Below are positions 381-23,944 of a stretch of DNA of 24,066 nt, piece by piece (position 1 is the first letter of the stretch; each line of letters begins with the position of its first letter). The stretch lies in IMG/VR virus record IMGVR_UViG_3300020399_000009, positions 1 to 24,066 of that record; one strand, written 5' to 3'. A program made the translations under genes and the position numbers. Source of the DNA: a virus. Lineage: Duplodnaviria; Caudoviricetes. The notes under the pieces were generated by a model that made no database searches, was not told where the DNA came from, and worked only from the letters and a program-made list of their open reading frames with translations.

Positions 381-806
381 CGCAGAGCTGTCTCGGTATT
401 GCGTGGTGAAAACAAGCTCTAGCACGGTAAATTGATCAGGTCTTTTTTGCTTTCGCTTGCCTACACACTCCAGCGCGTTAATTTGCCCATTGCTCCAACC
501 TTGCAAGGCTTTATAGACCGCTTCCTCCACATCATAATAAAACAGGCTTTTTTCGCGTGCAGCTTCAGGAGTGACGGCATTGGTGTTGCCTCTCCAGTCT
601 AAGCAAATGGCCACAGTGATCTGGGCGTTACATTCCTGTATCTTTAAGTTCAGATTTTGCCGCCGGGGTTCTTGAATGTCTATCAGCGTCGCCGGGAATA
701 GAATAGGCGGTTTCTCATAATTCATTTGCCCTTTGTCTTCATCAGCCCATTTGATCACATCAAGGGCTTGCAGACGATCTGTAAGGTCTATAAATAGCGT
801 TTTCAT
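366..806 (-). CDS. Mu gp37-like tail terminator / tail completion protein
   Basis: 146 aa; WADEDKGQM..PPILFPATLID and VYKALQGW patterns; coupled to the upstream gene by an ATGA overlap. Confidence 0.65.
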   Translation of the reverse strand: MKTLFIDLTDRLQALDVIKWADEDKGQMNYEKPPILFPATLIDIQEPRRQNLNLKIQECNAQITVAICLDWRGNTNAVTPEAAREKSLFYYDVEEAVYKALQGWSNGQINALECVGKRKQKRPDQFTVLELVFTTQYRDSSALDAG

Positions 807-1312
807 CGATTGTTGTAAAATGCCGTAAGGCGGTTAATAATAGCTTGATTGAGATACTTAGAATTGCCCATAAAGCGTCGCTCAGGCATCTTGTAATTTA
901 CGGTACGCGTATGCGCCTTGATCTGTACCCGTTTTCCTTTACCCATAAAGTTGCGGTTAGTATAACTCTTTACGTTGCGTATGCCGGTGATGCGTAATCC
1001 TTCATTATGCACACGTGCGTAGGGAGCTTTAGTATTACCGGCTGAGATTACCACCCGGGTTGCATTGATTTCGCTGGGGCGAATGGAGTTCATTAAATCA
1101 CCGGTTCTGGTAAGAATACGCCCTTTACCTCGGGTTTTGGTGGCTGCGTATTTGGGGTTAAGCGTTTCCCAAGGCACACCGTCCCACTCCTGCGTATTGA
1201 AACGCTCTTTAAAGAACTCGACAGCAGTATCTGATACTATTGTAGGCACGGCAGCATCAAAACGATGCTCAAAACGTGAAAACCAGTCGTTTAATTGCTT
1301 TTGATAGTTCAT
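803..1312 (-). CDS. Phage virion morphogenesis protein (Mu gpG / tail completion S family)
   Basis: ILTRTGDLMNSI, PYARVHNEG and MPERRFMG motifs. Confidence 0.88.
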   Translation of the reverse strand: MNYQKQLNDWFSRFEHRFDAAVPTIVSDTAVEFFKERFNTQEWDGVPWETLNPKYAATKTRGKGRILTRTGDLMNSIRPSEINATRVVISAGNTKAPYARVHNEGLRITGIRNVKSYTNRNFMGKGKRVQIKAHTRTVNYKMPERRFMGNSKYLNQAIINRLTAFYNNR

Positions 1313-1326
1313 TTACTGTATCTTTG
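1295..1326 (+). promoter_or_regulatory. Bacteroidota-type promoter firing antisense to the packaging operon
   Basis: TATCTTTG at 1319-1326 (TAnnTTTG) with TTG at 1295-1297 (21-nt spacer). Confidence 0.55.
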
Positions 1327-1332
1327 TAGTAA

Positions 1333-1458
1333 GTTGATGATGACGGTAAAGGGGCGGCCAACACCTAGCAGGTGACGGGGGCGGCCTACGGCTGATAGGG
1401 ACGGCGTCATCTGATATTAACCTGCATCTATAACCCCGCTCTTGTAGCGGGGTTTTAC
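1333..1458 (+). ncRNA. Putative structured small RNA convergent with the portal-MuF-nuclease gene
   Basis: Upstream promoter box and downstream + strand terminator; closing helix GTTGAT/ATTAAC plus GATGACG/CGTCATC; inner hairpins; G-rich. Confidence 0.5.
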
Positions 1459-1463
1459 TTTTT
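1432..1463 (+). terminator. Intrinsic terminator (+ strand)
   Basis: AACCCCGCT-cttgt-AGCGGGGTT followed by TTACTTTTT; no T-tract on the - strand side. Confidence 0.75.
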
Positions 1464-4106
1464 ATACACCAGCAGCCCGTTGCGGTGTTTGTTTAAGATT
1501 GTTCTTTTTTCGGTTAGCTCGTACCACGTAAGCAGCTCCATTGTTCCGTTTTTGATCGATGCCCTTACTGTGATTGTTTTATCAAGAAAGTATGAGATGT
1601 ACACCATCTCGCCCAGCTCTGCACCATTTAACCAAACCTCGTGTGGGGCTGTAAGCGTCTGGCCTAAAGCTTCAAGTAAACGCACTCGTTCTGCACGCCT
1701 TTTGGTATGCCGTTTAAAATTACCCTCTTTCACTTGTAGCGGCCGTTTGTGATAGTCTTTAATCACGCGTAGGTCATTAAGGCTTTCTAACTGGTCAAAG
1801 AATTCAGCAGCTGTGCCCTCATAAGTCTTTGTAGCTTCGGTGGCTTGCTTTTTGGCATTGCTGTAGCTGTCAAGACCCCAGTCTGCCGGTTTAAGCGTGT
1901 TGATCATTTTTGCAGCTTTCCCGGGAAACTTATGTACATACTGCTGGTTTGCGGTAAACACTTCTCCAGTTGCCGCACGGTTAACACCCCAACCTTGTAA
2001 TGCTTCGCTTTTAAACTGCTTGGAGTTTAGGTAGGCGTCAGCACGTTTGCGGGAAGCCCTCAGCTCTTCTTGAGTCACCTCGTTTTTTAAACGGGGCACA
2101 ATGTAGCAGCGGCAGTTCCATCCATTAGGCGGGAATAGCTTATCCCAGCGCTTATCATTAGAAGGTAAAACGAGACCGTTAAGGGCAGCGTGCTCTGGTC
2201 TTACCAGATGATCACCTGCGGTTTTATACTTCCAGTACGGGTATAGTTCTGTTTGCTTAATAAGCCTGTTATACGTTGCCGCAGCTTCTCCGGTAAGTAC
2301 CGCACTGGTGTACTCTGTCTCTAACCAGTTTTTATTAAAGACGCCTAAGCGCTCTTTAGCCATCTGGTAAAATTCTCTAAAGCTGGTAGCCTTTTTAAAT
2401 AGTTCGTTTAACTCGTACACCTCTGCTAAGGTTTTTGCTCCACTAAATCTAAATAAATTTTGCTCAAATGCAGTGAGCAGCGCAGGATCATCTATCCCAT
2501 ACACAAAGCCCGGCGCGTCTGCTAAAGTAATAGTGTTGGCTTTATCCCAAGCTTCTTTAAATCCCTTAAACAACGTGCTTGCTGTATAGTAAAAGAGCGC
2601 AGCATCAAAACTTACCTTCCCTTTTTGCTCCCATATACGATTGATCAACCCATCATTATCAAAGCCTTCAAGCGCTGCCAGATTGATCGTGTGGTGATGA
2701 CCACAGCTGGCTGTTGCCCCGGTCGTCTCCGCCGGGGCTTTTGAAAAAAAAGGTAAAAAGCGTTTAAGCCAGTTCAAGAACCCCCGATCAAGTTGCTCCT
2801 TGGTTTCCTCATCAGAAAGCGAAAGGTTCACCGCATCGGGATCTTCTTTTTTGTTAGCCTTTTTTGCCCCGGGTTTCGGTACCGGTGGCTTTTGTTCCTT
2901 CTGCTGAGCCTTAAGGCTATCGTAGTTCTCAGGCTTTGGCACGTCAAAAGTCTCGTAAAAGAAATCATCGTCAATGGGCAGTCCTAACTCTTTACGCATA
3001 GACTTGTACATCTCATAACTTTCCTTAACTGTGAGTTCCTGACTTTCGCCCTGAATGATAAAGCGACCACCTTGAGTATCAAACCCGGCACTTTGCAGGA
3101 TGCGTATAAAACGTGAGTTTAACACCCGTCTAACGTAGTTTAAATCGGTCTCGTGCTTGCTTTCGTCCTGCTCCTGATGGGTTTTACTCTGCGCATAGCC
3201 AGAGCTGGAGCTGCTCTCGGTAGTCTCGGTGGTACCAATTAAAGCCTTTGATATTTCGGCATTGAGAAAGCGCAAAAAGTTACCGTGCGCATCGCCCGTG
3301 GCATTGACGTTATTCTCTTTGATGTCGATGGTGGTTCCATCGGGTCGTATGATGGTACCGCCTGCGCCAATTTCCTGTAAAGCCTGCTGAAGCTGCACGC
3401 GTTGCTTCTCATCAAAGCCGTTCCACATTGCGTCGATCAAAGGATTCCCAAACGTCTGAATAAAGGCCGCATAATCGCCCAGCCCGCCACGTTTTAAAAT
3501 AGCGTATGGCGAGGCCTTCATATACAAGCCTAAATCTTTGATCTTGCCGACCTCCATAATGGTTTTGGCATAGATGCCTTCACGAATATTAACCCCCTCC
3601 TCGCTGTAGCTGTCATAACTCAGTATACCATTCTCAGGCCGGTAATTGAGACGCGGCAAAAGTCCGGCGTCCATTTCCCAGCTGCCGTCCTGATCTTGCC
3701 AAAAGGTGGGTTCCATCATAGAATAGCCCCAAAACTTTGCGTTCATAATCTCATCGAGCAGGTCGTCAAAACCAACGGAGTCAATTAGATCATTAACCGT
3801 ATCAACCGGCGTCCCTTCCTTATCTACAAATTGCCAGTTGGCTGCTTTGATAGGATCGCGACGCTTTCCGGTCACCGCCTCGACGTGACCGTCAAGGTCA
3901 ACATCGGCATAGAGGTTATACAATAGGCTGCGCCGTGGGATTTGAGATTCTGCGCTTTGAATTGCGCGCCTCCAGTTAGGGATGTCTTGCTCCGTACGAT
4001 TGTAAGGTCGTACCTCAATCTTGTGCAAAACTATCTGATCAGGAGCGCCAGCCGGTTTGGTAACCTTTGTCTTGGTTATTCGTTTATTAGATACTTTTCG
4101 TGCCAT
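1455..4106 (-). CDS. Portal protein (Mu gp29/DUF935-like) fused to MuF (gp30) head morphogenesis domain and a C-terminal PBECR-type nuclease-fold domain
   Basis: N-term DLDGHVEAVTGKRR, AKFWGYS, FIQTFGNP, NAEISKALIG, SGYAQSKTHQE (portal); YKTAGDHLVRPEH...PPNGWNCRC (MuF); TLTAPHEVW...VYISYF...LLTWY...RNGLLVY (PBECR2-like). Confidence 0.85.
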   Translation of the reverse strand: MARKVSNKRITKTKVTKPAGAPDQIVLHKIEVRPYNRTEQDIPNWRRAIQSAESQIPRRSLLYNLYADVDLDGHVEAVTGKRRDPIKAANWQFVDKEGTPVDTVNDLIDSVGFDDLLDEIMNAKFWGYSMMEPTFWQDQDGSWEMDAGLLPRLNYRPENGILSYDSYSEEGVNIREGIYAKTIMEVGKIKDLGLYMKASPYAILKRGGLGDYAAFIQTFGNPLIDAMWNGFDEKQRVQLQQALQEIGAGGTIIRPDGTTIDIKENNVNATGDAHGNFLRFLNAEISKALIGTTETTESSSSSGYAQSKTHQEQDESKHETDLNYVRRVLNSRFIRILQSAGFDTQGGRFIIQGESQELTVKESYEMYKSMRKELGLPIDDDFFYETFDVPKPENYDSLKAQQKEQKPPVPKPGAKKANKKEDPDAVNLSLSDEETKEQLDRGFLNWLKRFLPFFSKAPAETTGATASCGHHHTINLAALEGFDNDGLINRIWEQKGKVSFDAALFYYTASTLFKGFKEAWDKANTITLADAPGFVYGIDDPALLTAFEQNLFRFSGAKTLAEVYELNELFKKATSFREFYQMAKERLGVFNKNWLETEYTSAVLTGEAAATYNRLIKQTELYPYWKYKTAGDHLVRPEHAALNGLVLPSNDKRWDKLFPPNGWNCRCYIVPRLKNEVTQEELRASRKRADAYLNSKQFKSEALQGWGVNRAATGEVFTANQQYVHKFPGKAAKMINTLKPADWGLDSYSNAKKQATEATKTYEGTAAEFFDQLESLNDLRVIKDYHKRPLQVKEGNFKRHTKRRAERVRLLEALGQTLTAPHEVWLNGAELGEMVYISYFLDKTITVRASIKNGTMELLTWYELTEKRTILNKHRNGLLVYKK
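2716..2751 (-). promoter_or_regulatory. Candidate programmed -1 ribosomal frameshift signal in the portal/MuF linker
   Basis: - strand CCT TTT TTT TCA AAA then GCCCCGG-CG-GAGA-CG-A-CCGGGGC: in-frame heptamer, 6-nt spacer, GC hairpin. Confidence 0.65.
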
Positions 4107-23113: not shown

Positions 23114-23944
23114 ATGCAGAAATTTAAATCGGCGCCCTTGCCGTTTCAGGGGCAAAAAAGAAATTTTGTAAAAGAGTACAGCGAGGCTTTAAAGAAATTC
23201 CCGGCAGATGCTATTTACGTAGACCTGTTTGGTGGCTCAGGCTTGCTCAGTCGAGTAACAAAGGACGTGCATCCTGAAGCACGAGTGATCTATAATGATT
23301 TTGACAACTTCAGCGCACGGCTAAAAGCGATACCTCAAACCAACTTATTGCTTGCTAAATTGCGGCAAATTACTGCCCGTGTGCCACGTCAAAGTAAAAT
23401 CCCAACGGACATAAAGAAGCGAATAATTGAAGCCGTAAAAACGCACGAGAATACGTTTGGGTATTTAGATTACATCACGTTGTCAAGCTCGATACTCTTC
23501 TCAGGTAAATATGCTACAAGCTTTAAAGAGTTGAGCAGCGCTACAATGTACAACACGGTAAGAAAGTCTGATATAACTCAAGCCGTGGGATATTTAGAAG
23601 GACTTGAAGTTGTAAGCAAGGATTATAAAGAGGTTTATCAGCAGTTTAAAAGCGACAATACGGTTTATCTGCTTGATCCACCGTACCTAAGCACAAACAC
23701 CGCCACTTATGGAAGTGATAAGTATTGGAAGCTTAAGGACTACCTTGATATTTTGGAGCTACTGGAAGGCTCGAAATACTTTTATTTCACCTCAAATAAA
23801 TCAAGCATCGTCGAACTTATGGAACGGTTTGAGACCACCACACTTGTTTCTAATCCTTTCAAGTGGTCAACGACCACCACCAGAGAGAACCCGGTCAATT
23901 ATCAGCATAAATATGATGATATTATGATCTACAAGCAGGATTAA
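23114..23944 (+). CDS. DNA adenine methyltransferase (D12 class, Dam-like, orphan)
   Basis: PLPFQGQK, YVDLFGGSG (SAM binding), IYND, DPPY catalytic motif. Confidence 0.9.
   Translation: MQKFKSAPLPFQGQKRNFVKEYSEALKKFPADAIYVDLFGGSGLLSRVTKDVHPEARVIYNDFDNFSARLKAIPQTNLLLAKLRQITARVPRQSKIPTDIKKRIIEAVKTHENTFGYLDYITLSSSILFSGKYATSFKELSSATMYNTVRKSDITQAVGYLEGLEVVSKDYKEVYQQFKSDNTVYLLDPPYLSTNTATYGSDKYWKLKDYLDILELLEGSKYFYFTSNKSSIVELMERFETTTLVSNPFKWSTTTTRENPVNYQHKYDDIMIYKQD

Follow-up and report, generated by a model that had tools for sequence, protein, structure and literature searches.

A convergent structured RNA family linked to the predicted PBECR2 RNase tails of Mu-like Bacteroidota phages, a candidate immunity factor

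The DNA analysed here, referred to as the window, is a stretch of 24,066 nucleotides from a virus record (IMGVR_UViG_3300020399_000009) in which Mu-like phage modules for head and tail are encoded. A long minus-strand ORF fuses a Mu-type portal to a MuF protein with a C-terminal PBECR2 domain, and in the gap between this gene and the neck gene lie the components of a small RNA gene that would be read on the opposite strand (Table 1). Named homologues are from Bacteroidota, and the locus displays the layout of MuF polymorphic toxins, with MuF in the head module and a C-terminal domain that differs between relatives, the tails of which comprise PBECR2, CdiA_C, LPD3 or a papain fold, or are missing altogether. 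Elsewhere in the window a D12-class adenine methyltransferase gene (23114-23944) lies at the right end of the tail module, and at the left window end a 12-bp hairpin with a T-tail on the plus strand (12-51), overlapping a TAnnTTTG sequence (42-49), just precedes a plus-strand frame of 107 amino acids (57-380).

Table 1. Genes, signals and RNA elements around the gap behind the portal–MuF–PBECR2 gene
Feature	Position	Strand	Basis
Neck/tail-completion gene, Mu gpG-like; bounds the gap	803-1312	-	Pfam
Partial -33 TTG, 21 nt upstream of the -7 box	1295-1297	+	sequence
Gap between fusion ORF and neck gene, 142 bp; RNA gene opposite the toxin	1313-1454	+	ORF map
Putative promoter box TATCTTTG, Bacteroidota sigma-A -7 type	1319-1326	+	TAnnTTTG match; activity predicted
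Structured RNA core, family A, ~95 nt; three-way junction and loop-tail pseudoknot	1331-1425	+	covariance model R1, 63.8 bits (window is a training sequence of R1; R1 has no pseudoknot)
P1 closing helix, core 1339-1345/1405-1411, imperfect outer extension to about 1332/1418	1339-1411	+	
P2 1352-1359/1380-1387 and P3 CC 1364-65/GG 1377-78, enclosing loop L3	1352-1387	+	register from family alignment
Pseudoknot, loop GCAGGT 1368-1373 / 3' tail ACCTGC 1420-1425, 6 Watson-Crick pairs	1368-1425	+	
P4 hairpin CTG 1392-94 / CGG 1402-04 (family CUG/CAG), stacked on P1	1392-1404	+	
Intrinsic terminator with a hairpin of 9 bp (1432-1454) and a T-tract that overlaps the stop codon of the toxin gene	1432-1463	+	
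Portal_Mu–Phage_Mu_F (MuF)–PBECR2 fusion ORF, 883 aa	1455-4106	-	Pfam
PBECR2 domain, aa 774-882	about 1461-1787	-	Pfam
Predicted catalytic His800 (codon); likewise Thr860	1707-1709	-	alignment

The tail was assigned to PBECR2 (PF18810) by a Pfam match over the cut-off (E 8.8e-13), and no ToxN-type family was assigned to the fusion. The AlphaFold (AF2) model of the domain, with a pLDDT of 96, displays in its predicted topology the hallmark of PBECR/BECR RNases, in which a histidine in an N-terminal helix is combined with Thr860 in a late strand on a helix plus beta-sheet core. The His800 column did not vary across 40 aligned tails, all of which had been picked from loci with a spacer between the toxin and neck genes. 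Among the 50 matches listed in a wide fold search the closest were CdiA-CT NC101 (Z 6.4), colicin D (Z 5.8) and BrnT (Z 5.4), with no ToxN-type chain, and the matches to RNases were modest (all Z<8); Foldseek with the same model returned nothing at E<=0.001, its matches all being at E>=0.012. The modelling points, modestly, to BECR-fold RNases as the best structural neighbours of the PBECR2 tail, which is predicted to be an RNase.

The 142-bp gap lies directly behind the nuclease stop, as the original prediction had it, and the plus-strand TAnnTTTG box that it described is indeed present. This motif is the -7 element of the primary sigma factor of Bacteroidota (PMC7366714), and here it is located just upstream of the start of the neck gene, on the other strand. 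The terminator was also found as described, the hairpin being followed by a T-tail on the plus strand alone. It should be emphasized that at one locus neither the box nor the fold is beyond chance, TAnnTTTG occurring 17 times in the window against 24 expected and the folding z of the single window sequence being just -1.6 to -1.9, and that the element owes its significance to conservation across relatives. ARAGORN detected no tRNA or tmRNA in the window, and Rfam 15 gave no match at the gathering threshold in the window and 20 related loci; at E<=10 there were 16 weak matches, far under the gathering scores and mostly on the terminator. The RNA family is thus absent from catalogues, having no Rfam match. 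At one relative (L014), contigs from a single run are even across the whole region, which is DNA-like and has no bearing on expression.

The small immunity ORF that typically lies directly downstream of MuF toxins was not found at the window, where the longest frame in the RNA has 12 codons, in agreement with the prediction that no immunity-sized ORF is present. It could be argued that this 12-codon ORF encodes a tiny convergent peptide which, rather than the RNA, is the immunity factor, and a 41-amino-acid hypothetical gene is annotated in GenBank, on the toxin strand, in the equivalent gap of the Porphyromonas gingivalis prophage BK068094, which has the family motif. Across 59 distinct RNAs no reading frame is conserved, the longest ATG-led frames encoding 0-33 amino acids and five RNAs having none, and the family alignments display 1-2-nt indels together with compensatory base changes. 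A peptide factor is, on these grounds, extremely improbable.

Comparison of relatives resolved the segment between box and terminator into the structured core that we term family A. Covariation was assessed in two sets of sequences. In 22 well-aligned sequences, chosen out of 59 distinct ones and aligned with MAFFT, 80% of the cells in P1, P2/P3, P4 and the pseudoknot were paired, compared with 68% in shuffled and 37-45% in slid controls, and both sides had changed in 23 of 32 pairs. In 26 distinct metagenome matches, which were aligned by the pseudoknot-free model so that the nested helices are fitted to it, and some of which are near-copies of training sequences, the corresponding values were 84% and, after shuffling, 64% (the slid range over both sets being 35-45%). 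The pseudoknot was 91% paired in the MAFFT set and 84% paired in the metagenome set, with four of its six pairs compensatory in each; its duplex has a predicted energy of -8.5 kcal/mol, and RNAalifold, applied to 34 poorly aligned sequences, recovered this helix alone, unprompted. Two-sided change was evident in 12 of 14 P1 pairs in one alignment (A3) and in 14 of 14 in another (A5), U-A was replaced by C-G in P4 in 7 of 25 sequences, and the junction bases are invariant in the family. As G-U outnumbers A-C (69 versus 20), the plus strand is favoured as the RNA strand.

The helices of the original prediction fared unequally in this comparison. The GATGACG/CGTCATC helix is present and forms the core of the covarying P1, while the outer helix GTTGAT/ATTAAC survives as an imperfect extension that competes with the pseudoknot for positions 1420-21. 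The repeat of GGGGCGGCC (1351-59 and 1378-86) is present in the window but was not seen in relatives, and the two copies of this 9-mer are the G/C-rich arms of stem P2. Neither inner hairpin could be retained. CACCT-agc-AGGTG shows no covariation beyond that of shuffled controls, and 10 of the 22 sequences break one of its pairs, leading to its rejection as a conserved fold in favour of the pairing of GCAGGT with the 3' tail; in place of CCTA-cggctga-TAGG the family has the short P4 helix, which is paired in 100% of cells.

A first scan of viral contigs with a single domain yielded three near-identical loci; the full collection comprises these 3 and a further 79 viral loci, 80 from GTDB and 80 from metagenomes, the best 80 being kept per alignment scan. 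The spacers read opposite the toxin strand begin with TAnnTTTG and share a motif. Among the distinct PBECR2 loci with a spacer (from the best 80 per scan), 106 of 110 have an exact TAnnTTTG 55-300 nt from the toxin stop, against a background of 822 in 10761 windows of 140 nt. Model R1 found 38 matches in 100 sources, of which 22 are training sequences; 37 lie beside PBECR2 and the remaining one (E 0.91) is noise. All 38 of its matches in 80 loci were beside PBECR2, and in whole genomes it had matches in 2 of 5 and 2 of 151, each at a PBECR2 locus. Divergent spacer RNAs escape R1 (examples are L038, L053, L063, L086, L093, L096-L102 and loci in G003-G005), and their assignment to the family is based on inspection and a loop-tail search. 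From the RNA side, an exact 19-mer scan recovered 30 loci, 27 beside PBECR2, one beside a gene end truncated by its contig and two that are chance matches without the rest of the motif, although this is a weak independent test as most of the loci are near-copies of one phage. Family A occurs in prophages common among Bacteroidota of the gut and mouth. In Flavobacterium phage fF4 the tail is His-positive, and a 128-bp gap with a promoter-like box lies behind it.

Some spacers contain more than family A. Spacers of 200-260 bp hold in their 3' half, behind family A, another conserved RNA module, 'motif B' (L009, L013, L014, L026, L049, L053, L054, L058, L063, L068, L083, L196, L259 and BK068094, the last at L273:3527-3780). 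Motif B is a long, irregular hairpin whose internal loops are conserved and which is closed by a stem of 9-11 bp and a T-tract. It has no Rfam match, and its possible roles are those of an additional antitoxin, an element for stability or a terminator of elaborate form. The sequence behind one PBECR2 gene (L225:2326-2626) contains family A twice, in tandem; the copies are divergent, and motif B comes after each of them. This arrangement resembles an accumulated or orphan immunity array. Three further loci (L056, L099 and L100) have 0.9-1.2 kb of extra sequence between the spacer RNA and the neck gene.

The relationship between the RNA and the state of the nuclease was explored in 122 distinct C-termini of PBECR2 proteins for which the downstream sequence exceeds 100 nt, again from the best 80 per scan. 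Behind 110 of these tails there is a spacer, and 105 of the 110 carry His at the catalytic column. In the remaining 12 the neck gene follows within 13 nt, leaving no spacer, and 11 of the 12 are without the His. The exception, L166, aligns with His but has a shortened helix. In the opposite direction, L097 (Tyr) and L161 (Ile) have kept the spacer RNA despite a different residue at the column, and the remaining spacer loci without the column His are L041, where a His is one residue off, L214, where the frame is broken, and L082, which has a spacer but neither His nor family RNA. On a quick IQ-TREE phylogeny of 82 rows under 90% identity, nine changes are needed to account for the 11 spacer-less rows, at least four of them forced by starred (strongly supported) branches. 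The table of His against RNA, which comprises 81 rows ('RNA' meaning that the spacer is present, with L041 counted as His-positive, L082 left out and L161 not a row), reads 69/1/1/10, giving a Fisher p of 6e-11 that is uncorrected for kinship; independent pairs were concordant in four cases and opposite in none (p 0.125), too few for significance. The PBECR domain of phage Mu gp30 has been called inactive (PMC5512222), and in that phage gp30 overlaps gp31, leaving no gap, in line with an inactive domain.

The original prediction would be undermined by an element equally common beside MuF genes that lack the nuclease. The element is absent from all 12 spacer-less PBECR2 loci, and the slot behind short, tail-less MuF genes has no promoter box within 330 nt in 13 of 14 cases. 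Linkage and joint loss thus provide good support, by comparison of sequences, for its central proposal, a self-contained convergent ncRNA tied to an RNase tail that, judged by its His, appears to be catalytically intact. The same data bear on the view that the RNA, with its three-way junction and loop-mediated pairing adjoining a portal gene, has no connection with the toxin and is a structural packaging or portal RNA similar to the pRNA of phi29, or else a self-cleaving ribozyme. The same portal fusion, however, is without the RNA where its tail is short or lacks the His, other RNAs take its place beside other tails, and even at E<=10 Rfam returned no ribozyme or pRNA; we consider this explanation very unlikely.

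The slot is occupied differently behind other tails. The scan of 42 tails other than PBECR2 matched 25 to CdiA_C at E<=0.05 (in several cases under the cut-off), six to LPD3, one to a papain-fold amidase and, weakly, one to a metallopeptidase. A convergent TAnnTTTG 42-83 nt from the stop is present behind 22 of the 25 CdiA_C tails, which we take to be tRNase-like (PD-(D/E)xK), behind all six LPD3 tails and behind 12 of 13 unassigned tails of 200-245 amino acids, and the sequences that follow these boxes are short, hairpin-rich and unrelated to family A. At the CdiA_C and LPD3 loci (for example L112, L114, L118, L121, L148, L157 and L159) there are several unrelated convergent hairpin RNAs of 40-80 nt, each with its own TAnnTTTG. 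Long tails of 286-331 amino acids, which are peptidase-like by HE motifs or Pfam, are followed in six of eight instances by a convergent ORF of about 70-90 amino acids. The small ORFs found behind metallopeptidase-like or papain-fold tails (L126, L128, L138, L147, L156 and L240) are candidates for new protein immunity families, one of them Cys/His-rich.

More distant PBECR2 genes were recovered by a Pfam search of 401 genomes, in which PF18810 had 20 matches. About ten of these constitute a distant MuF-PBECR2 subfamily (among them L281, L283, L284, L285, L288, L289 and L290) with other convergent RNAs, in which a conserved first hairpin is kissing-loop-like and its loop is complementary to downstream sequence in the four of the seven that the search pattern parsed; some of these RNAs lie under sigma70-type (TTGACA/TATAAT) boxes. 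In addition, four solo PBECR2-like genes of ~100 amino acids (L293, L294, L296 and L297) are each followed by a DUF2283 gene (4/4 tested), an arrangement which, by gene order, looks like that of a type II toxin–antitoxin system.

It could be argued that the convergent RNA silences a leaky toxin gene in cis, as a type I-like antisense or by transcriptional interference, without binding the protein. The layout is convergent; the intergenic part of the polycistronic late mRNA would have its full complement in the transcript, which would terminate close to the stop codon of the toxin. A T-rich run starts between -15 and +36 nt of the stop at 102 out of 107 loci, although the pattern is loose and partly reflects terminal Lys codons. 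Joint loss with the His is equally expected of an antisense. This explanation, however, predicts neither a conserved pseudoknot, nor invariant junction bases, nor a fold that differs with each RNase family, and it does not account for the protein that occupies the same slot behind peptidase-like tails. In terms of the pairing with toxin mRNA that characterises type I systems, the RNA matches the late mRNA solely between the genes and around the stop; in trans, its complementarity elsewhere in the window extends to 11 nt, which is within chance (9-13 nt in shuffles). Finally, an antisense could offer no protection against an enzyme delivered by virions. On balance, silencing in cis is rather unlikely, though it deserves to be taken seriously.

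A different possibility is that the enzyme needs the RNA, as a cofactor, guide or dedicated substrate, with PBECR2 working as a ribonucleoprotein or processing the RNA into an active regulator. Mutual dependence of this kind fits the joint loss of RNA and His, and the family-specific folds, equally well. In contrast, the variable positions of the family RNAs fall for the most part within covarying stems, and nothing resembling a free spacer was seen; the guide option of the original prediction is without support. A housekeeping-type promoter apart from the late operon agrees better with immunity that is in place beforehand. No requirement for RNA cofactors is known for the enzymes with the nearest folds, colicin D, CdiA-CT and BrnT. 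We regard a cofactor, guide or substrate role as distinctly improbable.

The explanation that we favour, and consider reasonably probable from the sequence comparisons, is that the small RNA gene encodes the immunity factor of the predicted PBECR2 RNase and acts by binding the enzyme directly, in a type III-like manner. The housekeeping sigma factor of the host would transcribe an RNA of ~130 nt independently of the repressed late operon, so that lysogens would contain it. Once folded, this RNA would sit in the RNA-binding cleft of the RNase, as an inhibitor or a decoy substrate, and could protect lysogens and producing cells against portal-RNase that is leaky or made late, as well as against RNase delivered by related virions. 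Because the RNase is fused to the portal, its entry into a new host would require processing; it may be cleaved off, or may act in the producing cell only. Decay of the RNase would make the RNA dispensable, and the RNA would then be deleted. The conserved box, the covarying fold, the terminator, the His linkage, the repeated joint loss and the swap of elements in the slot count in favour of RNA immunity; counted against it are the exceptions at the His column, the modest RNase fold matches, the p of 0.125 for the pairs, the portal fusion and the lack of a tRNA-like motif. A broader proposal, to which we would give even chances, is that each RNA-targeting warhead (the PBECR2 subfamilies, CdiA_C and LPD3) has a cognate convergent RNA inhibitor, and that protein-targeting warheads use proteins in the same slot.

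Similar arrangements are known from type III toxin–antitoxin systems (ToxIN, CptIN and TenpIN), in which an endoribonuclease is paired with, and bound by, a pseudoknot ncRNA with its own terminator, and which occur in mobile elements and phages (PMC12283969). Here too a predicted RNase is paired, in a phage, with an ncRNA that has its own terminator and folds into a conserved pseudoknot, the structural feature of this mechanistic class. In those systems, however, the antitoxin is a tandem-repeat array that lies upstream of, and is co-transcribed with, a ToxN-fold toxin (PMC12283969), whereas the RNA described here is a single, non-repeated three-way junction located downstream, convergent and under its own promoter, and the putative toxin is a BECR-fold domain, as modelled, fused to a structural portal–MuF protein. 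Neither upstream tandem repeats in one operon nor a ToxN/AbiQ toxin is present, the window containing just a local two-copy repeat of 12 nt that is not conserved and a toxin that is PBECR2 by Pfam. A second precedent is AbiF/RCd22, in which a prophage ncRNA of ~100 nt binds an RNase-type toxin directly and thereby neutralises it, in trans as well (bioRxiv 10.1101/2025.04.15.648962); the likeness lies in a phage-borne ncRNA of similar size beside an RNase-type protein, binding being in our case a proposal. AbiF is Cas13-related and not a virion protein, and RCd22 is upstream and co-directional and carries two Rfam abiF motifs (RF03085; bioRxiv 10.1101/2025.04.15.648962), whereas the window RNA has no RF03085 match.

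In MuF polymorphic toxins a small ORF is directly downstream in 89.4% of 191 cases (PMC5576092). The locus resembles these systems in its temperate-phage head-module MuF, its swappable C-terminal toxin and an immunity-like unit directly downstream (PMC5576092), but differs from those with protein immunity in that this unit is encoded by the opposite strand and yields an RNA, as predicted; in the Bacteroidota phages studied here even the ORF-type partners are convergent, and MuF is fused to the portal. The PBECR domain of the window fusion is shared with polyvalent proteins including Mu gp30, for which the passages on PBECR in PMC5512222 name no RNA partner or immunity factor. No RNA partner for MuF or PBECR is described in the mainly open-access literature searched, nor in the main-text passages of bioRxiv 10.64898/2026.08.28.747851 and 10.64898/2026.09.22.753630 or of PMC5737381 (the 224-motif paper), PMC10367356 and PMC10994844; the supplements of PMC5737381 and of the Minerva preprint (bioRxiv) could list the motif.

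The comparative evidence indicates that the structured RNA family tied to predicted phage RNase tails with an intact catalytic His is real and uncatalogued, and that the RNA most likely acts as an immunity factor; its occurrence in P. gingivalis prophages and Flavobacterium phage fF4 makes this proposal directly testable. To our knowledge, toxin-binding RNA antitoxins are established for few protein families, and the immunity of polymorphic toxins is assumed to be conferred by proteins. If the proposal is true, RNase warhead and folded RNA are exchanged, and lost, as one cassette, which would widen the concepts of both RNA antitoxins and polymorphic immunity. In its broader form, with a cognate RNA for each RNA-targeting warhead, it would take RNA antitoxins to two or more further nuclease folds and to effectors carried by virions, and would add several undescribed RNA families. 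The proposal would also account for 'orphan' MuF and PBECR toxins that have no immunity ORF, and would identify natural RNA inhibitors of colicin D/CdiA-like RNases. Finally, it would provide a rule for the state of a PBECR domain, in which the presence of the RNA denotes an active enzyme and the lack of a gap, as in phage Mu, a dead one.
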